Shown here: positions 24,349-59,981 of the stretch, piece by piece
Layout: every line of letters begins with the position of its first letter
How positions within the stretch are numbered: position 1 is the first letter of the stretch
Source of the DNA: an uncultured bacterium
GTDB lineage: Bacteria > Hydrothermota > UBA3072 > B12-G15
Assembly (NCBI GenBank): GCA_965612735.1
Contig: CBFDSV010000004.1
Location: 8,826 to 72,825 of the forward strand
DNA length: 64,000 bases
Reading direction: 5' to 3'
The notes under the pieces: model-generated
The model's database searches: none
What the model was told of the DNA's origin: nothing
Seen by the model: the letters and a program-made list of their open reading frames with translations, nothing else
Position numbers and translations under genes: made by a program

Positions 24349-24509
24349 TAGATAAGGAACTCTTGAAAATTCTTGCGTGTCCCAAATGCAAGGGTGACCT
24401 TAAGTATGATGAGAAAAATGACAGACTTATATGTGAGAAGTGTAAACTCGCATATCCTATTAAGGATGGCATCCCTGTTATGCTGATTGAAGAGGCAGAA
24501 AAAATATGA
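24345..24509 (+). CDS. Trm112/YcaR-family small zinc-binding protein (54 aa)
   Basis: Missed by ORF track. [19 protein letters not shown]...[24 protein letters not shown]; ATGA overlaps at both ends. Confidence 0.92.
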
Positions 24510-44037: not shown

Positions 44038-45113
44038 AGTTTACCCTCTTCCCTCATTACGATTAATAAAAACCATGCTCCGATAAAAACAGCACTCACC
44101 ATAAAAAGTACGAGATCAAAATAAAAGATGTATGGGTTCCTTGTAAGTAGAAGAACAAAATCTGTAATCCATGCAATGAGTGAAAATCCAAGACCACATA
44201 AAAGCAACCAGTAGCCCTGTATCTTGAGCATAATCTTCCATTTTTTTGTAATATATATGATAAGTAAAAGTATCAGGATTACCCTGAAATAGAGGTTCAA
44301 TTTCTCTGCCGTAAAGGCATTCAGAATCTTTGGCCTTTCTGCACCTGAAAAATATTTATCAATCAACCTGTAATAAATAGACTCTTTATCCTCCTTCATG
44401 CGCTTCAGATCTTCATCTATATCATTTATTATCTCCTTTCTTTTGAAATTCTTTGGAAAGGCAAATTTTACAGGTGTGAGATTGAAAACTATTGATGTCC
44501 TCTCAACCCTGTATTTATCCTCCATCAACTGGCCAAAGATTCTGTTAACCACACCTGCATCCGCATTACCATTTGAGATTGCATCAAACACCTCCATATA
44601 GTTGCTACACTCAACATAGTCACAATGGACACCAAGTTGTTTAAGGGTGTTTTTTATGTAAACCCCATGAATACTTCTTCTCCATATAGCAAGTCTTTTA
44701 CCTTCAAGGTCATAGAATGACTGAATGTTTTCACCAGGCCTTTTGTATATCAATGCCCAGTTGTAAAACACAGGTTCCCTGTTGAACAGATAGAGGGATT
44801 CTCTCTTGATAGATGGAGCAAGGTCAGGAAGAATATCAATATCTCCATTTTTAAGGGCTTCAAGGCAGGAATCAAAGGGCATATGTACATATTCAATCCT
44901 CCATTCCCTGTTTCTTGCAATGTATTCAATTAATTCAGGCCAGAAACCTGTAACTTTACCATCTTCTGTGAATAAAAACTTTGGGGGATTATCATACACA
45001 CCCACCTTTAAGATGCCCTTTTCACTCCCTTTGAGAAGGGGGGTAATTGTAAGGATGCTCAAAATCATTAGCAATGCAGGATTCATTCCCTTGATAATTG
45101 AACCTCTGTTCAT
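44034..45113 (-). CDS. Family 3 (amino-acid type) solute-binding domain protein with C-terminal TM helices
   Basis: LKVGVYDNPP, GFWPELI, LKNGDID, DLEGKR, GNADAGV; 3 C-terminal TM; start 45113 set by promoter. Confidence 0.8.
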   Translation of the reverse strand: MNRGSIIKGMNPALLMILSILTITPLLKGSEKGILKVGVYDNPPKFLFTEDGKVTGFWPELIEYIARNREWRIEYVHMPFDSCLEALKNGDIDILPDLAPSIKRESLYLFNREPVFYNWALIYKRPGENIQSFYDLEGKRLAIWRRSIHGVYIKNTLKQLGVHCDYVECSNYMEVFDAISNGNADAGVVNRIFGQLMEDKYRVERTSIVFNLTPVKFAFPKNFKRKEIINDIDEDLKRMKEDKESIYYRLIDKYFSGAERPKILNAFTAEKLNLYFRVILILLLIIYITKKWKIMLKIQGYWLLLCGLGFSLIAWITDFVLLLTRNPYIFYFDLVLFMVSAVFIGAWFLLIVMREEGKL

Positions 45114-45119
45114 GATTTT

Positions 45120-45148
45120 ATTATAATAAAAACCCTGTGAAGTGTCAA
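45120..45148 (-). promoter_or_regulatory. Consensus sigma70 promoter for the SBP/kinase pair (leaderless)
   Basis: Perfect TTGACA-17-TATAAT-6 nt-ATG(45113). Confidence 0.75.
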
Positions 45149-45214: not shown

Positions 45215-48200
45215 ATGGAAATGACCGGAGAAAAAACCTTGAAGGAGATAGAACTCCACCTTCAGGAGATAATGAGAACTATTGAAGATATTTCCTCTTC
45301 AACAGAGGTGATATACAATACAAATCTGAAATTTTCTGGAGAGATTGAGGAAATTAACAAGATCCTTGAAAACATGTTTGCAAAAATCCAGTTGTTTGTT
45401 GAGGCTGCAGGAACCATCGTTGATAGGGTGAGCAGTAGCAGAATAACACTGGAAAAGACAACTTCCACACTTGAAAAAATAGTTTCATACTATAAAGCCT
45501 TGCTTTCTTCATCTGAAAAGGCCCTGAAAGGATTTGAGGAACTTGAGACAATGGGCACAAGGATTTTTGAATTACTTGAGAGGCTTGAATCAATCAACAA
45601 AACAAGTCTTTCCACAGCAAGAAATGCTGAGATTAAGGCCTACCATGCAGGTGAAGGAGGAAAAGGGTTTGAGATTGTTGCAAGGGAACTGGGCGAGTTC
45701 ACAAAGAAATCAATCGCCCTTGTTGAAGATATTATGGAAACAATAAAAACACTCAAGGAAGAATCAATTCTGGTAAGGGAACACTTCAAGAAGTTTGAAG
45801 AACCCATACAGAAACTTGAGAAAGGGGTGGCTTCCCTTAACGATGGAATTGAGTATATTAAGGAGAGTTTCAAGAGTATTGAGGAGTACTCAAAACTTGT
45901 TGGTGAGGAGGGGGAAAAGCAGGACAGAATGAGGGCAGAACTTCAGAGGTTCACAGGTGAATTATCCACACTTTCACAGAAACTTCTTCTCAACAGTAGC
46001 AGGGCTAATTTTATAACTGGACAGAAGATTACAATGGGTGAGATTCTTTCATTCCTGTTTGAACAACTGAGAAATACCTCTGGTAATGAAACCCTTGAGG
46101 GGATAGCAAAGAAGAAGTTTGTTGCACATTTAGTCATTCTTTCATCCCTTATTGATATTATAATCACAGAACTCAGTTCAATTGATGTGAGTAAAATGAG
46201 GCAAAGTTTGAAGTTAAAAGATATTGACAGATTGAAGGAAATCATAGTCAGGCAGGAAAATCTTTCAAAGGAGATAGCATCATATGCAGACGAGGCCATA
46301 GGTGCAGCAAAACAATTGGGTGAAAATCTTGAAAAGATGGAGGAGATGAATAAATCCCTATTGGAAAAAATTGAAGAGATTGATAAAAGCCTACAGAGGG
46401 TGATAGAAGGCTTTAACCAACTTAAAAAACAGGGGAGGAATACTGTTTCTGCAACAGAGAATTTGAGGATTCTCTCTCTCTATGCAAAACTGGAGGCAGT
46501 CAGGGCAGAGGATGAAAACCTCCTGGTAATTGTTGAACAGATGGCTGAACTTTCATCCCAGTTTAAATCTGCCTCAAGAGAAATAGAAGACTTTGTTAAA
46601 GGCATCAAGGAAAGCATATTCTCCACCAACGAGGGTATATCTGAAATGGGTGCATATGTTGGGGAGACCGGGAAAAACTTACTTCAATCAGAGCAATTGC
46701 TTTCAGAGGCTGAAGAAGGTATATCCTACATAACAAGTATATCAAATGAACTAATTGACACAATAAACCAGCAAAAGGAAATAACCGACAGTTTCCTTGG
46801 AACAATCACAAGGATTTCATCTGAAATGGAGAGCAATATCAGGATCTATTCTGACCTTCAATCTGGACTCAGAGAGGAAAAAGGAGAGGTTGGGGCATTG
46901 ACCTCTCTTCTGCCTTTTAGAGAATTCCACATCCCTGAAAAAACATTCACACTTTACCTCAACTCGGATGGAGACCCTATTAATCTGGACCCTGCATATA
47001 TAGGGGATGCAACCTCCAACTTTTTTGTCAACCAACTTTACAGGGGTCTATTTGAATTTGGTTTCTCTGCACGGGTTTATGCTACCCTTCCAGAATTCGT
47101 AAAGATATCCGAGAATGGACGGAGAATAAGCATAAGATTAAAGAGGGGGATAAAGGCACACAACGGTTCTCTAATAACTGCTGAGGATGTTGTATTCAGT
47201 TTTAAGAGGGTGATGAACTCACCAAATGCCGTCTTCTTTGAGGCTGTGGATGATATTAAAGTTATTGATAACTTCACATTTGAAATTTCATTGAAGTATC
47301 CATACATTCCCCTGTTCTCAAACCTTGCCACCATAGCCGGCTCCATCATACCGCAGGATGCAGGAAACCTTGACCTTCACCCGATTGGTATTGGCCCTTA
47401 CAGATTTGTTGAATGGCAAAAAGGGAAGGAGTTCAGATTGGAAAGGTTTTCTGAATATACAGGTGGTTCTGGGTATGCTGATGAAATAGTGATAAAAATT
47501 ATACCTGATAATGATGAGGTTATTGAACGATTTAAGGCAGGGGAACTGGACATAGTTTCCCTTGGACTTTCTTCCATACCAAAACTTGAAAAAGACCCTG
47601 AGTTAAAAGCACGAATGATAAGGGTTAACAGTCTTGACATTCAATATTTTGGGTTCTGCTTTAACAAAATAGATGAAACCCCTTTCAAAGACGTCAGGGT
47701 GAGAAGGGCAATGTCCTACATGATTGATAGAGAAAAATATCTTGAAATACTGTACATGGGGCATGGTATTCCTGCCAAGGGGCTTTTCCCGCCCGGGCTT
47801 GACACCTATAATCCATCCCTCAGGGGATACGAATACAATCCTGAAAAGGCACGGGAGCTTTTAAGGGAAGCAGGTTATCCAGATGGACTTCCTGATAAAT
47901 ACTATCTTGATATCAGTAGTTCAAAGGTGAATATTAGAAGGGCGGAGGTTCTGGCTGACCAGTTCAAACAGTTCGGTATAAATCTTGAAATAAGAACAAG
48001 ACCATGGGGTGAATTTCTTGACTTTGTCCACAGGGGAGAAGCAATCATGTTCCTACTTGGATGGAATACTGATAATGGGGATCCAGACAACTTTCTTTTC
48101 CCTCTTTTCCACTCAAAAAGTATCGGTGAGGGTGGAAATTCTACCTATTATTCTAACCCTGAAGTTGACAGACTGATTGAACTTGGCATGCAGGAATTAA

Positions 48201-48379
48201 ATCCCCAGAGAAGGATTGAAATATACAGGGAAGCAGAGAGAAAAATCCTTGAAGATGCACCCATGATTTTTCTGAGCCATAAGTATGACATCTATCTTGT
48301 TCAGGATGACATAATGGGATTCAAGCCCAATCCAATATCCCATGGGACGCATTACGAACATGTCTACAAGGAGTTATAA
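45215..48379 (+). CDS. Soluble chemoreceptor-like protein: two degenerate MCP coiled-coil hairpins fused to a C-terminal family 5 (DppA/OppA) solute-binding domain
   Basis: Hairpin tips ARNAEIKAYHAGEGGKGFEIVA and ILSLYAKLEAVRAED; SBP5 motifs INLDPA, ITAEDVVFSF, PIGIGPY, DVRVRRA, YNPEKARELL, YSNPEVD; no TM or signal peptide. Confidence 0.8.
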   Translation: MEMTGEKTLKEIELHLQEIMRTIEDISSSTEVIYNTNLKFSGEIEEINKILENMFAKIQLFVEAAGTIVDRVSSSRITLEKTTSTLEKIVSYYKALLSSSEKALKGFEELETMGTRIFELLERLESINKTSLSTARNAEIKAYHAGEGGKGFEIVARELGEFTKKSIALVEDIMETIKTLKEESILVREHFKKFEEPIQKLEKGVASLNDGIEYIKESFKSIEEYSKLVGEEGEKQDRMRAELQRFTGELSTLSQKLLLNSSRANFITGQKITMGEILSFLFEQLRNTSGNETLEGIAKKKFVAHLVILSSLIDIIITELSSIDVSKMRQSLKLKDIDRLKEIIVRQENLSKEIASYADEAIGAAKQLGENLEKMEEMNKSLLEKIEEIDKSLQRVIEGFNQLKKQGRNTVSATENLRILSLYAKLEAVRAEDENLLVIVEQMAELSSQFKSASREIEDFVKGIKESIFSTNEGISEMGAYVGETGKNLLQSEQLLSEAEEGISYITSISNELIDTINQQKEITDSFLGTITRISSEMESNIRIYSDLQSGLREEKGEVGALTSLLPFREFHIPEKTFTLYLNSDGDPINLDPAYIGDATSNFFVNQLYRGLFEFGFSARVYATLPEFVKISENGRRISIRLKRGIKAHNGSLITAEDVVFSFKRVMNSPNAVFFEAVDDIKVIDNFTFEISLKYPYIPLFSNLATIAGSIIPQDAGNLDLHPIGIGPYRFVEWQKGKEFRLERFSEYTGGSGYADEIVIKIIPDNDEVIERFKAGELDIVSLGLSSIPKLEKDPELKARMIRVNSLDIQYFGFCFNKIDETPFKDVRVRRAMSYMIDREKYLEILYMGHGIPAKGLFPPGLDTYNPSLRGYEYNPEKARELLREAGYPDGLPDKYYLDISSSKVNIRRAEVLADQFKQFGINLEIRTRPWGEFLDFVHRGEAIMFLLGWNTDNGDPDNFLFPLFHSKSIGEGGNSTYYSNPEVDRLIELGMQELNPQRRIEIYREAERKILEDAPMIFLSHKYDIYLVQDDIMGFKPNPISHGTHYEHVYKEL

Positions 48380-48799
48380 ATGGAAGTATTGACATTTTAT
48401 CTGGAGGAAGAGCCATACGGAATTGATGTGAGGAATATTGTTGAAATAGTGGAGAAACTTGAGCCTGTGAAGGTTCCCCTATCACCCCCCTATGTTGAAG
48501 GTATAGCAAATTTAAGGGGAGAGATTGTGCCCATTGTGAATCTAAAAAAAAGGTTCGGTGCAAAAAAATCAGGAGGACAATCCATAGTTGTTATAATACT
48601 TCATAAAGGTGAGAAGGTTGGTATAATGATTGACAGAATTTCAGGGATTCAAAATGTTCAGGAAACAGAACTGAAGAAACCAACCAGACGGTTGAAGAAA
48701 CTCATCCCCCCTGAATTCCTTGCAGGTGTCTTTTCGGTTGGTAAAACCAGGTATCTTTTGCTTGACATTGATAAAATCTTAGAAGAAAAAGGAGGATAA
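48380..48799 (+). CDS. cheW: Chemotaxis coupling protein CheW
   Basis: TFYL...YGID, VP..PPYVEGIANLRGEIVPIVNL, LLDIDKIL. Confidence 0.93.
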   Translation: MEVLTFYLEEEPYGIDVRNIVEIVEKLEPVKVPLSPPYVEGIANLRGEIVPIVNLKKRFGAKKSGGQSIVVIILHKGEKVGIMIDRISGIQNVQETELKKPTRRLKKLIPPEFLAGVFSVGKTRYLLLDIDKILEEKGG

Positions 48800-49165
48800 A
48801 TGGGCGTAAGGGTTTTAGTCGTTGATGACGCTATTTTTATGAGAAAGATGCTTGGGGATATACTCAGAAAAGAGGGATACGAAATCGTGGCAGAGGCTGA
48901 AAATGGCAAGGAGGCTGTTGAAAAGTACAAGGAATTAAAACCAGACCTTGTGACAATGGACATCATCATGCCTGATATGAGCGGGATTGATGCTGTGAAG
49001 GAGATTATCAAAATTGACCCCGATGCAAAGATAATAATGGTAAGCGCAATGGGACACCAGACCCTTGTAATTGAGGCAATACAGGCAGGTGCAAAGGACT
49101 ATGTGGTTAAACCTTTCCAGCCTTCAAGGGTTCTTGAAGCCGTACAGAGGGTGCTGAAACTGTAA
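48800..49165 (+). CDS. cheY: Chemotaxis response regulator CheY
   Basis: VLVVDDAIFMR, DLVTMDIIMP, MVSAMG, VKPF; single domain within che cluster. Confidence 0.93.
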   Translation: MGVRVLVVDDAIFMRKMLGDILRKEGYEIVAEAENGKEAVEKYKELKPDLVTMDIIMPDMSGIDAVKEIIKIDPDAKIIMVSAMGHQTLVIEAIQAGAKDYVVKPFQPSRVLEAVQRVLKL

Positions 49166-49170
49166 AAGAT

Positions 49171-50922
49171 ATGATTGATAATTCTGTTGGTGAAGAGTAC
49201 AAAAAACTGTTTAAGAGCGAGGTTATATCTTACCTTGACAACCTCAACAACCTTGTGGTGGAACTTGAAAAACACCCTGAGAGGAAGGATGTTATTGATG
49301 AAATCTTCAGGATTTTCCACACGATCAAAAGTATGGCAGGAACAATGGGTTATGAAGAGATGTCACAACTCTGCCACAGAATTGAAGACCTTCTGTTTCC
49401 TGTAAGAAACGGAGAAGAAAAGGTATCCCAGAATCTCATTGATGAAATCCTGAATGGAATAGACTTTATTGAAAATTTCGTCACCGGTGAGAAGAAAACC
49501 ATTAACAGGCTAAAAATAACGTTGAATAAAGAGACACCTCTTCCTGGCGCAAGATTCTTCACAATACTCAATAACCTGAAATCCATTACCGATGTGGAAC
49601 TTCTTGAACCAGGTATTGAGGAACTTACAGGTGAAGAGGATATCTTCCAGTTTGTGATTTCCACAGGCAACCCAGAGAAGATTCAGGAAGAACTAAGAAA
49701 ATACTCAGAGGTTGAAAAGGTTGAATTGCTTGCTGAAGAGGAAAAGGAACACGTTGTAAAGGATGAGTCAAAAAAACCAAGAGAGTTGAGGGTTGATATT
49801 GAGGACCTTGATGCCCTCCAGAATATTCTTGCCGAACTTGTCATCACAAGGGAAAGGCTGAAGGAACTCATTAAAGAGAGGGGTGATGCTGATTTGAATT
49901 CTGCAATGGAATTCCACTCAAGGGCAATCTCAGACCTTCAAAACATAGTTATGAAGATAAGGATGGTTCCACTTTCACACATATTTGACAGATTTCCCAG
50001 GTATGTGAGAGACCTGGCAAAAAACCTGGGCAAAAAAATCAACCTGAAAATAATCGGGAGTGATATTGAACTTGACAGGTCACTCATTGAAAGTATTTCA
50101 GACCCATTGCATCACCTTGTGAGAAATGCAGTTGACCATGGGATTGAACCCCCTGAAGAGAGAAAAAGGATGGGGAAAAATGAAGAAGGAACAATTGAGA
50201 TTAAGGCATCAAGGGAGAAGGGTTTCATAAAGATTACAATCTCGGATGATGGGAGTGGCATAGATACCGAGAACATAAAAATTATGGCTTTAAAGAAGGG
50301 ATTGATAAAGGAAGAGCAGGCAGGAAGGCTGAGTGAAAGGGAACTTATTTCCTTCCTGTTTCTACCTGGATTCAGTACAAGAGAAGAGGTGAGTGACCTT
50401 TCAGGCAGGGGTGTTGGGCTTGATGTGGTTAGGGAAGCCATGAGGAAGATTGGAGGAAATGTGGAGCTCCATTCTGTTCAGGGAAAGGGTACAACAATAA
50501 ACCTTTACATCCCCCTCACCATGGCAATAATCAAGGCTTACATTATAAGGGTAGAAAATGAATTCTATGCAATACCTTTAACCTTTTTGATAGAGACCAC
50601 ATCCGTTGATAAAAACAGAGTATCATTCATCCATGGAAAACCACTTGTCATCTTGAGAAACGAGGTGATGCCCCTCTACAATCTGAGAAAGATATTGAGT
50701 CTTAAAGACAGAAATGGAGATGGAACAGATATGCCTACCCTGGTGTTGAATGTTGAGGGCAAAAGATTTATATTATTGGCAGATGAACTGATAACATCTG
50801 GAGATATTGTGGTTAAACATCTTCCTGTGATAATAAGAGATATCAGACAATATACGGGTGTAACCATAATGGGCGATGGATATCCCTGTCTTATACTTGA
50901 TGTGCCAAATCTTGTTCAATAG
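49171..50922 (+). CDS. cheA: Chemotaxis histidine kinase CheA
   Basis: Hpt IFRIFHTIKSMAG, P2-like region, RMVP, HLVRNAVDHGIE, SDDGSG, SGRGVGLDVV, C-terminal CheW domain. Confidence 0.96.
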   Translation: MIDNSVGEEYKKLFKSEVISYLDNLNNLVVELEKHPERKDVIDEIFRIFHTIKSMAGTMGYEEMSQLCHRIEDLLFPVRNGEEKVSQNLIDEILNGIDFIENFVTGEKKTINRLKITLNKETPLPGARFFTILNNLKSITDVELLEPGIEELTGEEDIFQFVISTGNPEKIQEELRKYSEVEKVELLAEEEKEHVVKDESKKPRELRVDIEDLDALQNILAELVITRERLKELIKERGDADLNSAMEFHSRAISDLQNIVMKIRMVPLSHIFDRFPRYVRDLAKNLGKKINLKIIGSDIELDRSLIESISDPLHHLVRNAVDHGIEPPEERKRMGKNEEGTIEIKASREKGFIKITISDDGSGIDTENIKIMALKKGLIKEEQAGRLSERELISFLFLPGFSTREEVSDLSGRGVGLDVVREAMRKIGGNVELHSVQGKGTTINLYIPLTMAIIKAYIIRVENEFYAIPLTFLIETTSVDKNRVSFIHGKPLVILRNEVMPLYNLRKILSLKDRNGDGTDMPTLVLNVEGKRFILLADELITSGDIVVKHLPVIIRDIRQYTGVTIMGDGYPCLILDVPNLVQ

Positions 50923-50933
50923 GAGGAACCTAT

Positions 50934-51557
50934 ATGAGGTTAAAGGACTTAAACAAATTACATCTGGATGGAATTAAAGAGGCAGCAAATATAGGTAGTG
51001 GACATGCAGCCACTGCCCTTTCCCAGATGATGGGGAAGAGTATCATGGTGAGTGTTCCAGAGGTTAAAGTTTTGAAACTGGAGGAAGTTCCGTATATATT
51101 TGGTGAAAAAACACCTGTTGTTGCAGCAGTGCTCACCAACTTTTTCGGGGACATAACAGGTAGAAACCTCCTTGTTTTCCCTGAGGATAAAGCACGCCTC
51201 CTTGTGGACATCCTTCTGGCAAAAAATCCAGGTGAAACTGTTGGTTTTGGAGAGATGGAAATATCATCCCTCAAGGAGATAGCAAACATAGTTTCAAGTT
51301 CCTACCTGAGTGCTATCTCTGAATTTTTAGGGATAATGGTGCTGCCCTCTGTTCCATCCTTCACACTTGATGACCTTGCAGCAGTTCTCACAAGCGTTTA
51401 TCTACAGTTTACTGACGAGGATGATAGGGAGTATGCATTCTGTGTTGAGACAAGTTTTTACTTCACCGAAGAGGCTGTTAAACTGGAGGGATACCTTCTT
51501 ATGATACCTGACAAAATGGGACTTGAAAGAATGTTAAAAAGCCTTGGACTTCTGTAA
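50934..51557 (+). CDS. cheC: CheY-P phosphatase CheC
   Basis: DGIKEAANIGSGHAATALS and SSLKEIANI (two ExxN motifs). Confidence 0.92.
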   Translation: MRLKDLNKLHLDGIKEAANIGSGHAATALSQMMGKSIMVSVPEVKVLKLEEVPYIFGEKTPVVAAVLTNFFGDITGRNLLVFPEDKARLLVDILLAKNPGETVGFGEMEISSLKEIANIVSSSYLSAISEFLGIMVLPSVPSFTLDDLAAVLTSVYLQFTDEDDREYAFCVETSFYFTEEAVKLEGYLLMIPDKMGLERMLKSLGLL

Positions 51558-54196
51558 TGGGAATAAGTGAACAGGAAGCAAGGATTTTAAAACTTTTTGC
51601 AAGCAAGATTGACCCCAATGATGCGGGGGCCCACAACAATCTTGCTGTTGTGTACTTCAACAAAGGCCTGTATGAAGAGGCAATTAAGGAGTTAAAAAAG
51701 GCGCTTGAAATAGACCCACACTTCACACTTGCCAGAAACAATCTGGAGTTCATTTATAAAAAGATTGGTTATTATGATAGGACAATTCAGGAACTTCAAG
51801 AAAAAATCAATGAAAACCCTGATGACCTTGAGTCCCTGAAACAACTTGCAGAGGCATACAAAAACACAGGGCAGTACTTCAAGGCAATCAGAATATACAA
51901 ACAGTACCTTAATAAAAACCCTGAGGATGTTGAGGCAATTGAAAACTATGGTGTTTCCCTGAAGGCAATTGGATTTTATGACGATGCAGCAGATGTTTTC
52001 AGAAGATTATCAAAGATAATTCCTGATTCAAGCCATATAAGAAGACACCTTGGTGAGGTTTATTATAATCTGGGGCTCCTTGACAGGGCAATATCTGAAT
52101 TCAAGGAAGCCATTAAGATAGACCCCAATGATGCTCAGGCACATTTCCTTCTTGCCTTTGTATATGGTGAAAAGGGCGATTTCCAGAGGGCAAAAGAGGA
52201 GACAAAGATAGCAATAAAACTGAACCCCACCCTTGCAAAGACAAAGCCAAATCTTGGGCTTGATTTTTACTCACAGGAAGGATACTCAGGATTTGTAAGT
52301 GTTGAGGATACGGAAAGCAACACCTTCCTCACACATTATTCGCTTGGTATTGCCTTCAGAAATAAGGGGCTCTTCAATGAGGCATTAAAGGAGTTTCAGC
52401 AGGCATTAAAGGTTGACCCTGAAAATGTTATAGTGAGGAAACAACTGGGAGAGATTTATCTCCTGAAAAATGAAAATGAGAAGGCCATTGCAGAGTATGT
52501 TGAGGCAATGAGACAGGATACATCTTCGCCCAAGATTCCAAACGACATTGGTGTAGCATGCCACAGGCTAGGGAAACTTGAGGAGGCACTCTCATGGTAC
52601 AACAAGGCACTTGAGATTGACCCTTCTTATGTTGTTTCATACAACAACCTTGGAATTGTTCACTATCATCTTGGTGATAAAGAAAAATCCATTGAATTTT
52701 TCAAAAAGGCCATTGAGATAGAACCAGATTATCACGACGCATATCTTAATCTCGGACTTGTATATATGCAGGAAGGGGATTTTGACAGGGCAATTGAACT
52801 CTTCAGGAAGGTTATTGAACTCAGAGAAGACTATCCCCTTGCCTATAACTATCTCGGGCTTGTGTATCTTAACAATGGAATGTTTGATGAGGCAATTTAC
52901 AACTTTAAAGAGGCAATTAAGAGAGACCCACAGTTTGCAGAGGCCTACTACAACCTTGGTTTTGCCCTATCCCGTATTGGCAAGTATGACGAGGCACTAA
53001 AGGCAACAAGGAAGGCCCTGGAGATTAACCCATACTATACAAGCAACAGGTTCAAACTTGGAATTGATGTATATTCTGAAAAACTTGAGGTTCTCATATC
53101 AAGGGAACTAACACAGGAAATGGAGATGGAATTTGTTACAGCTGAACCTGAAAGGGACGAGGAGAGCATCTTTGAAGACATATTTGTTGAACCTGAGGGC
53201 CCATCCCTTGATATAGAGACAACCCTTAAAGAAGCACAGAATTTGTTTACACAGGGGCTTTACGACCTTGCCATTGAAAAACTACAGGAGATTGTACGTA
53301 TAGAACCTCAGAATACAGAGGCCTCACTTCTGCTTGCGAGAATTTACAGGATAAAGAAACTCTACGGTGAGGCTTCAGATATACTGAAGAGAATTCAGAG
53401 TGAAAGCAAGGAGGCAGTGAAGGAACTCGCAAGGGTCTTCATTGATACAGGGGATTTCTTCAATGCAAAAATGAAGATTGAATCCCTTCTTGAGAAAGAC
53501 CCTGGTGATGTGGAGAGTTATAAACTCCTCGCATATCTGGCTGAAAAGGAAGGGGATTATGATTCTGCTGTTTACACACTGGAAAAACTGCTCAAGATTG
53601 AAAGGAGTGAAGATATACTGAAAGAACTTGGAAGGTTGTTGATAGAGAAGAAAGAATTTGATAAGGCAGCAGACTATCTAAAAGAGGCATTGGAACTGGG
53701 AAAGGATGTTCATATCTACTATCTGCTCGGCAAAATCATGTATCTGAAAGAGAATTACATTGACAGTAAGTCATATCTTGAAGAGGCAATAAAAATTTCA
53801 CCAGACAATTCTGATGTAAATAAACTTCTTGCAAAGGTTCAACTGAACCTCGGAGAGTTTGAAAGTGCTTTGAAAACAGTGGAGCATCTTAAAGAAAAGG
53901 TCTCTGGAGACAGTGAAATTTATTTGATAGAGGGAAACATCTATACAAGGATTGGTGATAACAGGGCAGCAATTAACTCCTTTGAAAAGGCAATAAGCCT
54001 TGATGAAAACAATATCACTGCTTATAAACTCCTTGCCTCACTCCTTACAAAAACTGGAGAACTTGAGAAATCTATAAAGGTCTGGCAGGAGATACAGAGA
54101 AGATGGCCTGAATCATCTGTTGCAGAAGAGGCAAAACAGGCCATTGAAGCAGCAAAGAAACTTATTGAACTCACTGGAGGATTGGGATGGCAATAG
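51557..54196 (+). CDS. Large multi-TPR protein
   Basis: Many TPR units (AHNNLAVVY, SYNNLGIVH, AYLNLG, AYYNLG); no signal peptide. Confidence 0.9.
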   Translation: MGISEQEARILKLFASKIDPNDAGAHNNLAVVYFNKGLYEEAIKELKKALEIDPHFTLARNNLEFIYKKIGYYDRTIQELQEKINENPDDLESLKQLAEAYKNTGQYFKAIRIYKQYLNKNPEDVEAIENYGVSLKAIGFYDDAADVFRRLSKIIPDSSHIRRHLGEVYYNLGLLDRAISEFKEAIKIDPNDAQAHFLLAFVYGEKGDFQRAKEETKIAIKLNPTLAKTKPNLGLDFYSQEGYSGFVSVEDTESNTFLTHYSLGIAFRNKGLFNEALKEFQQALKVDPENVIVRKQLGEIYLLKNENEKAIAEYVEAMRQDTSSPKIPNDIGVACHRLGKLEEALSWYNKALEIDPSYVVSYNNLGIVHYHLGDKEKSIEFFKKAIEIEPDYHDAYLNLGLVYMQEGDFDRAIELFRKVIELREDYPLAYNYLGLVYLNNGMFDEAIYNFKEAIKRDPQFAEAYYNLGFALSRIGKYDEALKATRKALEINPYYTSNRFKLGIDVYSEKLEVLISRELTQEMEMEFVTAEPERDEESIFEDIFVEPEGPSLDIETTLKEAQNLFTQGLYDLAIEKLQEIVRIEPQNTEASLLLARIYRIKKLYGEASDILKRIQSESKEAVKELARVFIDTGDFFNAKMKIESLLEKDPGDVESYKLLAYLAEKEGDYDSAVYTLEKLLKIERSEDILKELGRLLIEKKEFDKAADYLKEALELGKDVHIYYLLGKIMYLKENYIDSKSYLEEAIKISPDNSDVNKLLAKVQLNLGEFESALKTVEHLKEKVSGDSEIYLIEGNIYTRIGDNRAAINSFEKAISLDENNITAYKLLASLLTKTGELEKSIKVWQEIQRRWPESSVAEEAKQAIEAAKKLIELTGGLGWQ

Positions 54197-55167
54197 AAGG
54201 ACCAATCAAGGAACTCGGGCTTTTTGAACTATTCCAGTTAATATCCTTTGCAAAAAAAAGTGGAAAATTAACAATTAAAAGAACAGGGGAAGATACACAC
54301 ACTTTGTTCTTCAGGGATGGTCTCTTAATTCACATGGAACTTGAGGATAGATTGGGTGATGAATTAAAGAAAAGGGGACTTCTTGGTGAAGATGAATCCA
54401 TTAAAGATGCCATAGATTCAGGTAAATTGAAGCCCAACCAAATCTACCCACTCTTTGCCACAATGGTTGAAAATGCAGTTTTTACCCTTCTCAAACTCAA
54501 GGATGGGTATTTTACATTCACAGAGGAAGATGTTTCGTCACCATGGGGTATGGAACTCAATTTGAGGATTGAAAACCTCCTTATGGAGGGAGCAAGAAGG
54601 ATTGATGAGATAACAAAAATGAGTTCAGTGCTTGAACCTGACAAATGCATCCCTGTAATCTCTGAAGAGATAGAAAAAATGAATTACATAAACCTCTCTC
54701 CAGAGGAATGGGAGATCCTATCCCTGATAGATGGAGAAAAGACAATCAGTGAGATATGCAGGGAGAGAGGTGATGAATTCAAGACAATAAAGGTTTTATA
54801 CGGACTTTTTATGGCAGGGGTTATAAAAAAGTCAGAAGTCGCTTCAGAAATAACCCCTCCCACTGCAGAAGAGGAAGGTCTTGCAAGAGGAATTGAACTT
54901 GCAGATAATCTGTGGAAGGAAGCAAATTATCGGGAAGGCATTGAACTCCTGCTCAGGTTGAGAGAGAGATTTCCGGATGAACCTGTGATTGATTATAATC
55001 TTGGTTTTTTTTACCTCAGAATGGGCAAATGGGGAGAGGCACTCACAGAATTTTCCCGTTTCATCTCCAGAACAAAGGATGGAAATGCAAAAGAAGAAGT
55101 AAGACAATTGCTGGATAAACTGAAGGAAATCTTTGAGCATGAAAAGAAGGAGGGATACATTGGATAA
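54187..55167 (+). CDS. DUF4388 (PATAN-like) domain protein with C-terminal TPR
   Basis: MAIEGPIKELGLFELFQLI...KKSGKLTI...LFFRDG; GYFTF; LLMEGARRIDE; LSPEEWEILSLIDG. Confidence 0.85.
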   Translation: MAIEGPIKELGLFELFQLISFAKKSGKLTIKRTGEDTHTLFFRDGLLIHMELEDRLGDELKKRGLLGEDESIKDAIDSGKLKPNQIYPLFATMVENAVFTLLKLKDGYFTFTEEDVSSPWGMELNLRIENLLMEGARRIDEITKMSSVLEPDKCIPVISEEIEKMNYINLSPEEWEILSLIDGEKTISEICRERGDEFKTIKVLYGLFMAGVIKKSEVASEITPPTAEEEGLARGIELADNLWKEANYREGIELLLRLRERFPDEPVIDYNLGFFYLRMGKWGEALTEFSRFISRTKDGNAKEEVRQLLDKLKEIFEHEKKEGYIG

Positions 55168-55999
55168 TGATGGACTGAAAAGCGCCCCTGGCTCCATTGA
55201 TGTTATGATTTCACTTGCTGACCTCTACATCCAGAACAACCTGCTTGACCAGGCGGTTGAACTTCTCTCAGGTGTGTATAGTGAAAACCCTGATGAACCA
55301 CGGATAATTGAGAAATTGATAGAACTTTATATCCTTAAAGGGAATGAAACAAAGGCAAAAATTCTTCTTCAGCAAGGCTTGTCTGTTGATAAAAATTACG
55401 AGGGCTTTCAAAAATATATGAAATTAATAGAAGAGGAAAAAACAGCCGATAGAATAAGAGAGGTGATTGCAGAGGCAGTGGAAGCAACCGAAGAAGTGAT
55501 ACCGCTTGAGGAACTTGAAGAGGCCAAAACCCCTGCAGAAAAAACAGCAGAGGAACAGGTAGAGAAGGTTGAAGAGGTTGAAAAACCTCTGATAGAGGTA
55601 CCTGAAAAAGAGATTGAACAAAAGGTGGAAGAAGAGGCTGGCGTTGACCCAATAAAAAGGGTGCTCTCAGCTTTATATGAGATAGATGAAGTGCTTGGAA
55701 TGATTTTATCAGATGAAACAGGTCTTTTAATTGCAGAAAACGTGAGGGTGACAATAGATACAGAAAGCACAGGTGCACTTCTCTCCTCAATCTATACAGA
55801 AACTGTTTCCACACTGGAGAGGTTAAATCTGGGTGGATTTGATTATATCATATTTGAATTCCCAAGGGGAGTTGTTCTAATCCTCGCCTCTCCACCAATT
55901 ATTCTCACAGTCATGTGCAAAAAGGACGTTCAGGAAGGGCTTCTGCTGTTGAAGGCAAAAAGTGTTATGGATGAACTGAAAAATATGCTGGGGGTATAG
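55160..55999 (+). CDS. TPR + acidic linker + roadblock/LC7 domain protein
   Basis: SLADLY TPR; Glu-rich linker; VLGMILSDETGLLIAE...GALLSSI...LNLG roadblock; TTG 55160 has GGAGG SD (track start 55133). Confidence 0.8.
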   Translation: MDNDGLKSAPGSIDVMISLADLYIQNNLLDQAVELLSGVYSENPDEPRIIEKLIELYILKGNETKAKILLQQGLSVDKNYEGFQKYMKLIEEEKTADRIREVIAEAVEATEEVIPLEELEEAKTPAEKTAEEQVEKVEEVEKPLIEVPEKEIEQKVEEEAGVDPIKRVLSALYEIDEVLGMILSDETGLLIAENVRVTIDTESTGALLSSIYTETVSTLERLNLGGFDYIIFEFPRGVVLILASPPIILTVMCKKDVQEGLLLLKAKSVMDELKNMLGV

Positions 56000-56000
56000 G

Positions 56001-56339
56001 ATGAAAAAGGAACTTGAACCTTTAATCCAGCTGGACGAAATTTATGGTGTGATTGCCGCATCAACTGATGGTATAATCATTGAATCAGCAACAAGAAAGG
56101 AAATAGACGAGGAGACAGCTGCTGCACTTACTGCAAGAATCTCAAAAGAGGTTGCTGACAAAACAGGGATAAAAAAGAATGTTCTCTCTATTATCAAGGG
56201 TGAAAACGGATATCTTATTTTTACAATAAAAAAGGATTTTGTCCTTGGCATCATTGGTGGAAATGATGTAAATCTAGGAGAGGTTAAACAGGTTTTAAGA
56301 AAGGTTGCTGACAGGATACAGGGCATATTAAGTGGCTGA
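56001..56339 (+). CDS. Roadblock/LC7 domain protein
   Basis: IYGVIAASTDGIIIES...ETAAALTA...IKGENG...VNLG. Confidence 0.85.
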   Translation: MKKELEPLIQLDEIYGVIAASTDGIIIESATRKEIDEETAAALTARISKEVADKTGIKKNVLSIIKGENGYLIFTIKKDFVLGIIGGNDVNLGEVKQVLRKVADRIQGILSG

Positions 56340-56817
56340 GGAAATCCTTTTAGGGGTTGAAACATCCCGAAAAATAGAGGATATACTGAATGGGTTTTTA
56401 AGGGCTTCAGGTGCAAGATGCGTTTTCCTTGTTTCCAGAAGTGGACAACTCATAAGTGAACTGGGATTCACAAGGGACCTGAAGGTTCTCTCAATCGTGG
56501 CACTTCTGTCTGGTATCTTTTCTGCAACGGAAAAGATAGCAAGGCTTATAAAAGAGGAACTTTCAGAACTACTACTTGAAGGGAAGGAGTGGAATGTATA
56601 TTTTAAATACATTGGTAAATCATATGTATTCATAACAATGTACAAGGAAAACTCCATCCTTGGTGTGATAAAGGTTGAATCAAAGATTGCGTGTAAAAAA
56701 CTTCTTGAAATCCTTACAGAGGAAGTACCAATACCAAGGGTTGAAAAATTTGAGGAAGATACAGAAGGAATAACAAAATTAATATCAAAATTCTTTGAGG
56801 AAACATGGGAAGACTGA
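56332..56817 (+). CDS. mglB: MglB-like roadblock protein
   Basis: ARCVFLVSRSGQLIS...VALLSGIFSATEKIARLIKE...LEG matches the pattern of myxobacterial MglB, with an acidic C-terminal helix; GTG start. Confidence 0.75.
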   Translation: MAEEILLGVETSRKIEDILNGFLRASGARCVFLVSRSGQLISELGFTRDLKVLSIVALLSGIFSATEKIARLIKEELSELLLEGKEWNVYFKYIGKSYVFITMYKENSILGVIKVESKIACKKLLEILTEEVPIPRVEKFEEDTEGITKLISKFFEETWED

Positions 56818-59800
56818 TAGCTCTCCTCGTAATTCTATTTCTGATAATAACAATAACCCTACTATCGCCAACAATATATAAGTTCATGTTTAAAAAACTG
56901 GAAAGTGCCATTTTAGAGGCACTACCAGAGGGAAGTTATTTTGAAAAGATGGAATGGAATGTGGTGAGTGAACTGAGGATTAAAAATATACATATAGAAG
57001 GGCTTGGTGACGCAAGTGAGATACTGATAAATTACTTCCCCACAGCAATTCTGAGCAGGAGGATAAGGAGTGTCTATATTGACGGTGCACGGATAAAAAT
57101 CACAGGTTCAGGAGGCGGAGAGAAGAAAGAAAGAACATTTCCTTTATTTTACATAAGAAATTTTATGCTACATAATGCAAGATTGGAATATGGAAATCAT
57201 TTTGTACAGGGTGATTTAAGGGCTAGTGTACGGGGGAGTAAGAGCAGAATGGATATAAGTATCAAATCCTTTTCAGGTTTGTTTGACTCAATACCGGTGG
57301 CGGAATTCAGGACAGATATTGGTCTAAGGGGAAATAAAATCTATTACAACATTTATTCTTTGAGATTCAACCATTCTTCTGCCCATGGCAAGGGAGAGGA
57401 CGACAGGTTTGATTTTTCCCTTGACCTTGACCTCTCCATACCTGGAAAATTTCTGGGAAAAGAAATAAGCGGAAGAGGGGTATTCAACATCAAGGGTAAA
57501 GGAAAAAACTTCAAGGTTAAAGGGATACTCAAACAGGTGTTTTATGATGGATACTATATTGACTCCATGAGTGTATCTGGTATCACTGATTCAATTTACC
57601 TCAAATCAGAAGGGATAACTGCAGTCATTCTCAACAGGGACATTCTCACTCTTAAATTGAACCTGGATAACTTTGACATCAGCCGTATTGACACAGCCCT
57701 TCCACCAACCTCCCTATCAGGCTTGGTTAATCTGAGTAAGAAGGGTGCTGTATACCTTTTCAAAGGTGACCTGAAGGGAAATCTTGCCTTTCTGAAATCC
57801 GATGCCATTTACTTTGACGGACTGCTTGATGGCGAGAATCTGAATATAAGAAAATTCATGCTTCTGTCTCCAGATGGTAATATAACTGTAAATGGCAATT
57901 ATTCTCTTAAAAAACGGACACTTGAAGGATTTGTAAATATAAACAACCTGAATGTTGAAAAACTCCATTACTCTCACATTGTCCCATTCAAGGGCAGGCT
58001 CTCACTTGAGATGAAGGCAACGGGTAAAAGGGCAACAGGTTCCTTCTGGATAGAGGATGGAAGGATTGGAGAATATCAGGCAAGGTATGCTGGCGGAAAT
58101 TTTGACCTGACCGATATTTTTAAACCCAAGGGCGAACTTGACATCTTCTTTCAGGACCTGAAACTCCCCTGGACAGGAATTGGTGCTATTTATTATTCTG
58201 GAAGATTCAATGGAAAGAAGGCAAGGTTCAAGGGTTTCACAAAGGGAAAGGGCTGGAAGGCAAACACTGTGTTTGAGGTTGATGCCACAACAAATTTGTC
58301 CGTCAAACTTGCAAACTTCAACATAACAATGCCTGAATACTCAATTTACCTCTCCTCCACACCAACATTCAAAAAAACAGAAAATGGATGGTCCCTTTCC
58401 TCTCTAACCATAACAGATGGAGACAAATTTACTGCTGGCATTGTAGCAAATGTAGATACATCTTCAGAAATAAATGGCAGTATTTCAATCATTGGGCTTG
58501 ACCTGAAAAAAATAGGTTTGACTCGGGGGATTGACCTGAAGGGTTCTGTTGATGCAATAATAAGGATTCATGGGAAAACAACAAGGCCTGTTTTCAGCGT
58601 CCTTCTCAACGGTGTGGGGGTTGGTAGCGAATACACCATAGGAGATTCCCTTAAATTGACAGGGGAAATAACAAGGGAAAAATTTGTTATTGATAAACTT
58701 ACAATTCTTGAAGGAGGCGCAAAATCCACCATAAATGGTTCCTACACCTTCAAGAACAGATATCTCTCTTTTCTGATTGAGTTGAACGATGCTGGTCCAT
58801 GGCTTTTCACCATAATTAGAGATAGGTTAAAAACCAAGAATTGTCAATTAACAGGTGTTGTCAGGGTGAATGGTAATATAAATTCACCTGAACTTTATGG
58901 AAAGTTGAGAATAAAAAATGGTCTGTTTGTTGAACCATCAACAGGAACAATTCTCAAGAACATTCTTGGGAGTGTGGAGTTAAAGAGGAACAGGGTGTAT
59001 ATAAAGAGTATCAAAGGGAATATAGGTGAGGGAACTTTTTCTTCAAAGGGGAATTTCTATATAAAAGAGAAATCTTATTCAATCTCTGCCAGTTTCAGGA
59101 ATACCCCATTCACCTATGGTTATGTATCATCCATTCTCAATGGTGATTTCAAGATAAATGGCAGGGGAGAGGATATAAAAATAGATGGGGGGATCACCAT
59201 TGACCAGGCTACAATAACTATGCCTTTCAGGATGAAACAGGAAGAAACAGGTAAAAGGCCAGAGAACCTTGTTATAAACCTGGGGATTGATGCAACAAAC
59301 TACAATGTCTGGTTGAAGAATGAAAATGCAGATATAGAACTGGGTGGTAAGGTTAACTTTCAGTATAAGAGGGGAGATATACTCCTTCAGGGCGAACTTG
59401 ATACAAAGCAGGGCAAGTTTAATTATCTCTATACAGACTTCACAATAAAACAGGGTAAATTTATATTCAGAAGTTCTGCTGTTGTTGACCCTGAAATCAA
59501 CCTGCTTGCATACACCACACCAACCCAGTCAGACTCTGTTTTCCTGAATGTTTCTGGAACAATGAGGAATCCCGTATTCAATATTTACTCAAAGCCACCA
59601 AGAAGCCTCAATGAAATCATCGTTCTCCTTGGATTAAATCTTGAATGGGAAGACCTGCTTTCCGTGAGCAAGGTAGAAGACGCCATTTCTTCCTCAGCCT
59701 TCAGGGCATTTGATTACTGGGCAAGGTCAAAACTGGCACAGGAATTCAAGAAAAGGTTTGGGTTTGACATCGCTCAGGTTGAAAAGGGAAGGGCTTATAA

Positions 59801-59981
59801 ACTGGTTGTTGGAAAGTATATATCCAAAAACCTCTACATAAGAGTGGGAACAGAGGTGTTCCCACAACTCAGGCTTGAGTATCAGGCAAACTATAAATTT
59901 GCTCCCTGGGGCATGATCTCTGCCGAGGAAGATAAGTTTGGGAGCAGAAAAATTCTCCTGAGATTCGTGTTCAGGTATTAA
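56805..59981 (+). CDS. tamB: Translocation and assembly module TamB / AsmA-like protein
   Basis: N-terminal TM anchor, long beta-rich repeats, C-terminal DPEINLLA...VSGTMRNP...VGKYISKNLYI...FRY. Confidence 0.82.
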   Translation: MGRLIALLVILFLIITITLLSPTIYKFMFKKLESAILEALPEGSYFEKMEWNVVSELRIKNIHIEGLGDASEILINYFPTAILSRRIRSVYIDGARIKITGSGGGEKKERTFPLFYIRNFMLHNARLEYGNHFVQGDLRASVRGSKSRMDISIKSFSGLFDSIPVAEFRTDIGLRGNKIYYNIYSLRFNHSSAHGKGEDDRFDFSLDLDLSIPGKFLGKEISGRGVFNIKGKGKNFKVKGILKQVFYDGYYIDSMSVSGITDSIYLKSEGITAVILNRDILTLKLNLDNFDISRIDTALPPTSLSGLVNLSKKGAVYLFKGDLKGNLAFLKSDAIYFDGLLDGENLNIRKFMLLSPDGNITVNGNYSLKKRTLEGFVNINNLNVEKLHYSHIVPFKGRLSLEMKATGKRATGSFWIEDGRIGEYQARYAGGNFDLTDIFKPKGELDIFFQDLKLPWTGIGAIYYSGRFNGKKARFKGFTKGKGWKANTVFEVDATTNLSVKLANFNITMPEYSIYLSSTPTFKKTENGWSLSSLTITDGDKFTAGIVANVDTSSEINGSISIIGLDLKKIGLTRGIDLKGSVDAIIRIHGKTTRPVFSVLLNGVGVGSEYTIGDSLKLTGEITREKFVIDKLTILEGGAKSTINGSYTFKNRYLSFLIELNDAGPWLFTIIRDRLKTKNCQLTGVVRVNGNINSPELYGKLRIKNGLFVEPSTGTILKNILGSVELKRNRVYIKSIKGNIGEGTFSSKGNFYIKEKSYSISASFRNTPFTYGYVSSILNGDFKINGRGEDIKIDGGITIDQATITMPFRMKQEETGKRPENLVINLGIDATNYNVWLKNENADIELGGKVNFQYKRGDILLQGELDTKQGKFNYLYTDFTIKQGKFIFRSSAVVDPEINLLAYTTPTQSDSVFLNVSGTMRNPVFNIYSKPPRSLNEIIVLLGLNLEWEDLLSVSKVEDAISSSAFRAFDYWARSKLAQEFKKRFGFDIAQVEKGRAYKLVVGKYISKNLYIRVGTEVFPQLRLEYQANYKFAPWGMISAEEDKFGSRKILLRFVFRY

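Follow-up and report, generated by a model that had tools for sequence, protein, structure and literature searches.

A Chemosensory Operon with TPR, PATAN and Roadblock Genes in Candidate Division WOR-3 and Its Putative Link to Type IV Pili

The window analyzed here is a 64,000-nucleotide stretch of DNA from an uncultured bacterium that we treat as a member of candidate division WOR-3; a related locus, 90% identical, carries that label. It contains an operon of eleven genes in which chemosensory (Che) genes are followed by genes for tetratricopeptide repeat (TPR), PATAN (DUF4388) and roadblock proteins and for a TamB-family protein. Our analysis tilts, if not strongly, toward this operon being the signaling half of a pathway that steers type IV pili (twitching) through an MglA/MglB-type polarity switch. 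The adaptation genes of the same Che pathway, together with a gene for an MglA-type GTPase, form a second locus on another contig, C6.

The host genome is a 2.16-Mb assembly of 74 contigs with an estimated completeness of 97.6%. Conservation was surveyed in a sample of 41 WOR-3 genomes, and synteny was counted in 19 neighborhoods of the first (window) locus from WOR-3 relatives and in 15 WOR-3 neighborhoods of the second. Because these relatives share ancestry and are not independent, the genome counts given below are descriptive, with no statistical test attached to them.

The Eleven-Gene Operon

The operon comprises eleven open reading frames (ORFs) on the + strand, preceded by a promoter-like site (aa, amino acids; values in brackets are Pfam E-values):

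45098..45127, + strand: promoter-like site matching the sigma-70 consensus at 10 of 12 positions and lying 88 bases before the receptor gene (consensus match only)
45215..48379, + strand: receptor, 1054 aa, Pfam MCPsignal (5e-14) and SBP_bac_5
48380..48799, + strand: CheW coupling protein, Pfam CheW (4e-30)
48800..49165, + strand: CheY, a stand-alone receiver, Pfam Response_reg (4e-33)
49171..50922, + strand: CheA with five Pfam domains (Hpt, P2, dimerization, HATPase, CheW-like)
50934..51557, + strand: predicted CheC-type phosphatase of phosphorylated CheY (CheY-P), Pfam CheC (6e-20)
51557..54196, + strand: large cytoplasmic TPR protein, 879 aa, Pfam TPR families
54187..55167, + strand: PATAN domain with about three TPR repeats (PATAN-TPR), 326 aa, Pfam DUF4388 (4e-24)
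55133..55999, + strand: TPR-roadblock fusion, 288 aa, Pfam TPR_19, with Robl_LC7 at the cut-off
56001..56339, + strand: Robl2, a short roadblock protein, 112 aa, Pfam Robl_LC7
56332..56817, + strand: Robl3, an MglB-like roadblock protein, 161 aa, Pfam Robl_LC7 and matches to solved MglB structures
56805..59981, + strand: TamB-family protein, 1058 aa, Pfam TamB (7e-31)

The intergenic gaps are, in gene order, 0, 0, 5, 11, −1, −10, −35, 1, −8 and −13 bases. An earlier interpretation made from the bare letters (the sequence-only reading) had described eleven abutting or overlapping genes at exactly these coordinates (45215-59981), with domains on which ORF positions, Pfam and profile-profile comparison now agree. 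It had also placed all of them under one promoter; the tight packing and the site at 45098-45127 fit this proposal, while co-transcription is predicted only. Promoter-like sites numbered 56 across the region (42.0 ± 6.5 expected), and terminator-like sites in the operon were not enriched over shuffled sequence (20 versus 15.1 ± 4.4 expected).

Consistent with the same reading, no cheR, cheB, cheD, flagellar or pilus gene was found among the window ORFs scanned by Pfam, namely 15 in and around the operon plus 29 of the 39 ORFs of at least 150 aa within positions 1-43000, where the other 10 overlap larger ORFs or run past the window end.

A Single Che Pathway Split over Two Loci

The genome has a single CheA and a single CheC, both encoded in the window, and one cheR, one cheD and one cheB, which lie side by side on C6. 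The order of the C6 locus is mglA-type small GTPase, 629-aa DnaA-like AAA protein, 531-aa TPR protein with two PATAN domains (2xPATAN-TPR), cheR, cheD, cheB, TPR protein, AAA_22 ATPase, cheW, a membrane-bound methyl-accepting chemotaxis protein (MCP) with a HAMP domain, and cheW. A third MCP of the genome is encoded on contig C72, so that the tally over the pathway is one CheA, three CheW, about three receptors, CheY, CheC, CheD, CheR and CheB. This is a single chemosensory pathway, split over the window locus and the C6 locus, with a full adaptation set.

The circuit had previously been described as adaptation-less. Since the two loci are complementary, CheR, CheD and CheB being encoded on C6 and CheA, CheY and CheC in the window, that description is wrong; in the sample of 41 WOR-3 genomes, the C6-type locus and the window-type module were found in one and the same set of 34, and in one of these they are fused. 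The search of the genome that had been proposed alongside it recovered cheR and cheB, mglA and pil genes, but gave no match to FliM, FlhA or GldM.

In CheY the acidic pocket (D9/D10), the phospho-acceptor D54, S82 and K104 are intact and are invariant in 40 orthologues, to which the protein is 61-91% identical. CheC carries two copies, starting at residues 12 and 111, of the CheC active-site motif, and it scores 165 bits against the NCBIfam Thermotogales CheC model (cut-off 250). Pfam detects no receiver domain fused to CheA, whose nearest solved relatives are 1b3q (4e-97), from Thermotoga, and 6s1k (1.5e-92), near-equal matches that do not discriminate between classes.

Conservation across WOR-3

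The TPR-roadblock fusion was matched in 34 of the 41 genomes, and so was the 2xPATAN-TPR protein of the second locus, at E-values of 1e-20 or better. The two sets of 34 are identical, both proteins being missing from the same seven genomes.

Around the first locus, the adjacencies cheA-cheC, cheC-TPR and TPR-PATAN were each kept in 18 of the 19 neighborhoods; at least one roadblock gene lay downstream in all 19, and the full order was preserved in 17. Such a gene order is conserved far more than expected by chance. The synteny survey that the sequence-only reading had called for thus found the che genes to be conserved beside the TPR/PATAN/roadblock block (18-19 of 19 WOR-3 neighborhoods), with the gene for the 879-aa TPR protein as the best-conserved non-Che gene of the cluster (E-values from 0 to 1e-124 in relatives).

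At the second locus, cheR-cheD-cheB followed the 2xPATAN-TPR gene in 14 of 15 neighborhoods, and an mglA-type gene stood ahead of the AAA gene in 12; one genome (G040, locus L154) has an MglB-like gene at the position occupied elsewhere by mglA. The two blocks are contiguous in genome G035 (locus L037), where cheA, cheC, TPR, PATAN, three roadblock genes, AAA, 2xPATAN-TPR, cheR, cheD and cheB follow one another.

Roadblock, MglA and MglB-like Proteins

The weakest domain call of the operon was the roadblock domain of the TPR fusion, whose Pfam score, 23.2 bits, barely exceeded the cut-off of 23. When 34-35 aligned orthologues were compared profile to profile with hhalign, this domain matched the Robl2 orthologues with a probability of 98.8% (E = 6e-17) and the MglB-like orthologues with one of 96.1% (E = 3e-9). 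The roadblock assignment is thereby confirmed at the level of sequence profiles, and Robl2 is the closest paralogue of the fusion's domain.

Robl2 itself found its best solved match in the Robl_LC7 protein 7f8m (1e-4). The best solved matches of Robl3 were the MglB entries 6h5b and 6izw (6e-12), and its paralogue in the same genome is the MglB encoded on contig C36 (5e-14). Against the NCBIfam MglB model, whose cut-off is 200 bits, Robl3 scored 47 bits and the C36 protein 100 bits.

MglA proteins are defined by a P-loop, an NKxD motif and a Thr replacing Asp in the G3 motif. The GTPases of C6 and C36 both carry the P-loop, NKRD and the Thr-for-Asp G3 motif, and the C6 protein matches solved MglA with an E-value of 4e-72. 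The Thr-type G3 motif of MglA is named in the abstract of PMC3000849.

On C36, a 162-aa roadblock gene precedes mglA in the canonical mglB-mglA arrangement. The genome therefore encodes this canonical pair and, in addition, a second MglA at the C6 che locus and an MglB-like protein at the window che locus; judged from these sequence comparisons, Robl3 is a candidate GTPase-activating protein for the C6 MglA. The tie to a roadblock/GTPase polarity module that had been suggested before now has genomic support, in that Robl3 is closest to solved MglB and mglA heads the partner locus on C6. A gene for a cyclic nucleotide-binding protein directly follows the mglB-mglA pair on C36 (L009:8828-9271).

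Type IV Pili as the Probable Output

No FliM and no FlhA match was obtained in the 97.6% complete genome of the window, which agrees with the earlier view of a non-flagellar chemosensory circuit. Among the 41 WOR-3 genomes, a genuine FliM match occurred in only two, and one of these (G032) has the only CheA found without the module, placed in an ordinary che cluster.

The genome does have a complete type IVa pilus set on contig C38 (PilB, PilB, PilT, PilC, a PilS/R-like pair, PilQ, PilO, PilN and PilM), and seven PilB/PilT-family ATPases in all. A pilT gene is found at the second che locus: its product scores 463 bits against a PilT cut-off of 319, and pilT lies no more than three genes from mglA in 12 of the 15 neighborhoods, usually with accC and thiE between them. 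In two genomes (G031 and G037), pilT directly abuts mglA and pilM, pilN, pilO and pilQ are found four ORFs further, nearly all on the same strand, giving the order pilM, pilN, pilO, pilQ, pilT, mglA, AAA, 2xPATAN, cheR, cheD, cheB.

The placement of pilT on C6 is an odd one for a pilus motor, between accB (biotin carrier) and accC (biotin carboxylase) and followed by thiE and mglA (L137:2121-3724, L008:17180-19121). Most of the 15 neighborhoods retain the order pilT-accC-(thiE)-mglA, with a short unlabeled ORF of ~155 aa before pilT, and accB was identified beside pilT in the window's own genome only.

A further connection to pili is provided by the PATAN domain. In the window's genome, a PATAN-only paralogue is encoded immediately upstream of an operon that holds two pilin-like genes and one PilY1-like gene. 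According to a preprint on Synechocystis (bioRxiv 10.1101/2021.06.11.447907), PATAN binds the N-terminal part of PilB and of PilC and suffices to reverse phototaxis; PMC4316618 reports that some genomes have PATAN genes in the vicinity of mglA and mglB. None of the five PATAN proteins of our genome has a receiver domain, so they are not members of the PatA type, in which PATAN is joined to a C-terminal receiver. Nevertheless, PATAN-TPR may work like a PatA-type regulator, and by analogy with these systems it is a candidate link to the pilus motor. With its structural model (pLDDT 86.2, a per-residue confidence score), Foldseek found no match for the PATAN fold at E-values of 0.001 or better and listed TPR rows only, and in a wide structure search (VIA-align) the list was filled by the TPR part, residues 220-326.

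The 879-aa TPR protein, in which no membrane helix was found, is by analogy with SgmX and Bd2492 a candidate scaffold or MglA effector. According to PMC7519303, SgmX is a TPR protein that MglA-GTP binds and that PilB needs for its polar placement; at the opposite pole, MglB prevents this. PATAN and TPR proteins were among the candidates considered in a study of SgmX partners in Myxococcus (PMC11580455).

Two other PATAN paralogues have surroundings of their own. On contig C28 (L132:3769-7650), four small proteins without a Pfam match separate a 274-aa PATAN protein from an ExbB/ExbD-type proton-channel pair downstream, an arrangement that could represent another PATAN-linked machine. On contig C37 (L133:4815-9836), a 301-aa PATAN protein is encoded beside a 625-aa TPR protein, a 213-aa protein of an unknown family and a protein with a C-terminal sorting tail of the type IX secretion system (T9SS).

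An output by pilus-independent gliding, through a Myxococcus-like Agl/Glt motor or a Bacteroidetes-type T9SS apparatus, we hold to be very improbable. The ExbB/ExbD-type channel is the motor type of Myxococcus gliding, and the pair on C28 is only five genes from a PATAN paralogue; proteins with T9SS sorting tails are also encoded in the genome. Moreover, MglA controls gliding and pili alike in Myxococcus (PMC7519303). Against this, there was no GldM match in the genome, a negative that is weak because the control genomes also gave none above the cut-off, and no gliding genes adjoin either che locus, unlike pilT and pilMNO-pilQ.

The module might also serve a cellular function other than motility, such as division or patterning, development, or biofilm and exopolysaccharide formation via second messengers. 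PATAN was first described in PatA, a regulator of heterocyst pattern (cited in PMC4316618). Residues 57-110 of the 2xPATAN-TPR protein (L008:13114-14709, on C6), inside the first PATAN domain, match an MshE-related cyclic di-GMP (c-di-GMP)-binding motif with 62 bits against a cut-off of 38; the PATAN-TPR protein of the window gave no such match. A gene for a GAF-GAF-GGDEF cyclase lies just downstream of the operon (window 61762-63498), the AAA_22 protein of C6 resembles an ATPase associated with PEP-CTERM/exopolysaccharide systems (220 bits, below the model's cut-off of 324), and one WOR-3 genome, described below, retains the module without CheA. We nonetheless consider such a function unlikely: pilT and pilMNO-pilQ adjoin the second locus, a PATAN paralogue adjoins minor pilins, and the organism has no Che pathway besides this one, which comes with a full adaptation set. 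MglA and MglB, as far as they have been studied, regulate motility and pilus polarity (PMC4316618, PMC3983030 and PMC7519303).

A second cyclase gene of the window, for a CHASE2-adenylate cyclase, lies 8 kb upstream of the operon (35793-37715).

The Receptor

The receptor has no signal peptide and no convincing membrane helix, its sole hydrophobic window holding charged residues. The structural model built with 29 orthologues (pLDDT 86.6) shows two antiparallel helical hairpins in tandem over residues 5-565, turning at residue 145 and at residues 432-433, and a complete SBP5 domain of the DppA/OppA type over residues 579-1054. Both hairpin tips are invariant across the 29 orthologues and coincide with the modeled turns; the canonical MCP tip is that of the first hairpin, and the second has a degenerate copy of it. 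A single receptor chain might, if the model is right, form the four-helix bundle that otherwise needs a dimer.

Foldseek with the C-terminal half gave 5u4o as the best hit (E = 6e-36, TM score 0.89 on the target) and matched DppA-, GbpA- and OppA-type proteins. From the model, we infer that the receptor is cytoplasmic and senses a peptide-like ligand, and the internal nutrient sensing proposed in the sequence-only reading is in keeping with this predicted location. A word-based search found the combination of MCP and SBP5 in five proteins, all close to WOR-3 sequences. A 1300-aa protein labeled Thermoanaerobaculia (P0006) combines SBP5 with AAA_22 and AAA_16 and is another cytoplasmic-looking case of this binding-protein fold.

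TamB

The tamB gene overlaps the last roadblock gene by 13 bases, and its product has an N-terminal membrane anchor (residues 4-22). It lies downstream of the roadblock genes in 13 of the 19 neighborhoods, all of the window's own class, and is missing from the cluster in the other six, all of other WOR-3 classes. None of the genome's three Omp85 genes is nearby, so there is no tamA beside the window tamB. A canonical pair is found on contig C22 instead: a TamA with three POTRA domains and an Omp85 domain and, after it, a TamB of 1110 aa that shares 25% identity with the operon protein.

Families f1, f3 and f4 have both TamB paralogues, and the rest of the phylum outside f1-f4 has the canonical type only; in family f2 the operon type alone was detected, in 18 of 20 genomes. 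Since the operon gene is restricted to one class and is a paralogue of the C22 TamB, we do not count it as part of the core. The view that tamB is an accidental neighbor was dropped in light of the paralogue pattern and of a precedent in Bdellovibrio: according to PMC3983030, the gene for the MglA-binding TPR protein Bd2492, an SgmX homologue, is co-transcribed with tamB and tamA, and the same synteny is found in Myxococcus. As the TPR-tamB association recurs there, we keep an envelope link as a minority reading.

These data bear on the alternative nearest to what was first proposed, namely an adaptation-less circuit that would pass internal nutrient status to a polarity GTPase and from there to localized outer-membrane assembly via TamB. 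The 13-base overlap, the 13 of 19 neighborhoods, the pattern in family f2, the Bdellovibrio and Myxococcus synteny and the predicted cytoplasmic receptor all speak for it. It is quite improbable all the same, given that cheR, cheD and cheB are present and part of the system, that tamB is missing in six of the 19 neighborhoods and from the Krumholzibacteriota-type clusters examined by Pfam (see below), and that the genome has a separate canonical tamA-tamB pair. The earlier view of TamB as an integral part, leading possibly to localized outer-membrane assembly, is weakened by the restriction to one class and the canonical pair elsewhere; the MglA-linked TPR-tamAB precedent in Bdellovibrio keeps a connection to the envelope in play.

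Proposed Mechanism

A pathway from Che signaling to pili could operate as follows. Receptors, including the cytoplasmic one with its peptide-binding-protein-like sensor, would set the activity of CheA, with CheR, CheB and CheD providing receptor adaptation. CheY-P would dock on a scaffold of the TPR and PATAN-TPR proteins and be reset by CheC. Docking might alter how active the MglB-like protein and its two roadblock partners are toward the dedicated MglA, or where they are located; MglA-GTP, together with the large TPR protein and the PATAN domains, would in turn position the PilB and PilT motors at one pole or activate them there. A second input, c-di-GMP, may enter via the MshE-like motif of 2xPATAN-TPR. 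The circuit envisaged in the sequence-only reading thus survives in being non-flagellar and GTPase-linked, but not in being adaptation-less, and the likely output, type IV pili, was not named there.

Several observations weigh against this pathway. One comes from a 97% complete WOR-3 genome (G029; loci L043 and L155) that keeps cheY, TPR, PATAN and roadblock as well as AAA, 2xPATAN and TPR, but has no CheA match in the genome and no cheR, cheD or cheB at the locus; retention of the PATAN/TPR/roadblock genes there implies that the module can work without Che input. (The cheY of this genome may be served by another kinase.) The presence of pili does not discriminate, because PilM-family genes occur in 40 of the 41 genomes sampled, also where the module is missing, and the adjacency of pilT and mglA could be incidental, as accC and thiE separate them in most relatives. 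The CheA, with its classical five domains and its CheC and CheD companions, is closer to flagellar/archaellar F1-type systems than to the known pilus systems (Chp or Pix), and a quick CheA tree with long branches, described in the next section, does not resolve whether the TPR/PATAN-linked CheAs are one lineage. Finally, no RNA run is among the 23 sequencing runs listed for this DNA, of which 19 contain it, mostly hydrothermal-vent metagenomes.

Related Clusters beyond WOR-3

The PATAN-TPR family is large: among 8000 proteins scored, 4151 matched at E-values of 1e-10 or better (best 120 listed). A profile of 14 PATAN-TPR orthologues, searched against species-representative genomes, gave 510 related loci, of which the best 80 were kept. 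These included loci labeled Krumholzibacteriota or Latescibacterota that carry cheR, MCP, cheW, cheD, cheB, cheA, cheC and cheY, then genes for a TPR protein of some 600-640 aa and for a PATAN-TPR protein of 375 aa. We know of no description of such cheA-cheC-cheY-TPR-PATAN clusters. The sequence-only reading had mentioned a similar cheA-cheC-TPR-DUF4388-roadblock order in Gemmatimonadota; no Gemmatimonadota name appeared among the named records (best 80 of the 510 loci, best 120 of the 4151 proteins), which is not evidence of absence.

The Krumholzibacteriota/Latescibacterota clusters resemble the window in their core order, and their CheY is 61-66% identical to ours. They differ in having cheR, MCP, cheW, cheD and cheB within the same operon and in their shorter TPR protein; downstream of the Krumholzibacteriota-type clusters are unrelated genes for a peptidase S46 and an EamA transporter, with no roadblock genes or tamB. 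Of five such genomes with the core, four lack FliM and encode a single CheA; FliM and a second CheA occur together in the remaining one. A canonical mglB-mglA pair is present elsewhere in each of the five, as is a longer MglA fusion, the latter in ORFs of about 375-423 aa; in one genome (G042, L167) this ORF is near a CheY-like gene.

In the quick tree of 63 CheAs, the three "extra" CheAs fell together on one side of a branch (SH-aLRT support 96), and the WOR-3-type and Krumholzibacteriota-type proteins formed two further groups. At three loci labeled Actinomycetota (L098, L117 and L130), a roadblock gene is paired with proteins that best match 2xPATAN-TPR, and phmmer found no che genes there.

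Elsewhere in the window, and unrelated to the che operon, are genes for two large peptidase C25 (gingipain-family) proteins (7307-9838 on the − strand and 24506-28147 on the + strand) and for two GWxTD-domain proteins.

Comparison with Known Systems

Only Myxococcus has given some understanding, itself incomplete, of how a Che signal reaches a Ras-like polarity switch; there the genes lie dispersed, and each adaptor had to be identified separately. The WOR-3 loci offer a candidate chain in two conserved operons of a small genome with a single Che pathway, running from receptor, CheA and CheY through CheC, the TPR/PATAN proteins, the roadblocks and MglA to pilT, and so an explicit short list of proteins for the CheY-to-GTPase and PATAN-to-pilus-motor steps. 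If the link holds, directed twitching may occur in WOR-3 bacteria from vents and in those Krumholzibacteriota and Latescibacterota that have the shorter core.

One may go further and suppose that WOR-3 and related phyla encode an ancient, compact "chemotactic polarity" machine, a proposal that we regard as possible but rather doubtful. Here stand-alone CheY-P, on a PATAN-TPR/TPR scaffold, would flip a dedicated MglA/MglB pair and thereby relocate the pilus motors. The two extra roadblock domains would assist as a heterodimer, the TamB paralogue of one class would be a trans-envelope partner at the piliated pole, and the receptor would be a single-chain, pseudo-dimeric MCP reading a cytoplasmic peptide-like ligand. 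Were this true, Frz-Mgl coupling would represent a long-standing and widely distributed design, not something special to myxobacteria, and the conserved TPR, PATAN and roadblock genes would be the missing adaptors from Che output to the GTPase switch.

With the Frz-Mgl system of Myxococcus xanthus (MglA/MglB/MglC/RomR and SgmX), the WOR-3 system shares a Che-type pathway with a predicted cytoplasmic receptor, a Thr-type G3 motif in MglA, an MglB-like protein with extra roadblocks (compare MglC), a large cytoplasmic TPR protein and, as the likely target, type IV pili. The FrzE protein of the Frz system is a CheA fused to a CheY-like receiver, whereas the WOR-3 CheA lacks a fused receiver, which sets it outside the Frz type; it is also accompanied by CheC and CheD. 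Other differences are the integral PATAN-TPR protein, the two AAA ATPases and the dedicated MglA/MglB-like pair that exists beside the C36 pair. The WOR-3 genes are also gathered in two conserved operons, while in Myxococcus they are dispersed, mglA not being near its partners (PMC4316618).

The cyanobacterial Tax/Pix systems likewise combine a Che-like pathway, PATAN and type IV pili. They use a PatA-type PATAN-receiver protein, in which PATAN serves as the output domain in Synechocystis; in WOR-3, PATAN is fused to TPR, CheY is separate, MglA and roadblock genes are in the clusters and the receptors are of other kinds.

The Bdellovibrio bacteriovorus hub (MglA, Bd2492 and TamAB) has in common with our system an MglA-linked TPR protein in a tamB operon and a link to pili at one pole; the Bdellovibrio operon (PMC3983030) contains an essential tamA-tamB pair and no che, PATAN or roadblock genes, mglB having been lost, whereas in WOR-3 the operon-borne tamB lacks an adjacent tamA and occurs in one class only.

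With the F1-type systems of Bacillus, Thermotoga and archaea, the shared parts are CheA, CheW, CheY, a two-site CheC, CheD, CheR and CheB. The window's genome differs from these in having no flagellum or archaellum marker and in having TPR, PATAN, roadblock and MglA genes in the operons. In the classification of Wuichet and Zhulin, the Tfp class is reportedly assigned by class-specific hidden Markov models of CheA, CheW and other components.

In the literature we found no description of a che-TPR-PATAN-roadblock-mglA cluster, within a coverage to which supplementary table S2 of PMC4316618 (MglA neighborhoods), which may bear on the point, does not belong. The parts and the logic of the system are known from the examples above. 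New features are the compact and conserved co-encoding of these parts, the combination of PATAN-TPR with a stand-alone CheY, an additional pair of roadblock proteins, a dedicated MglA and the type of receptor.

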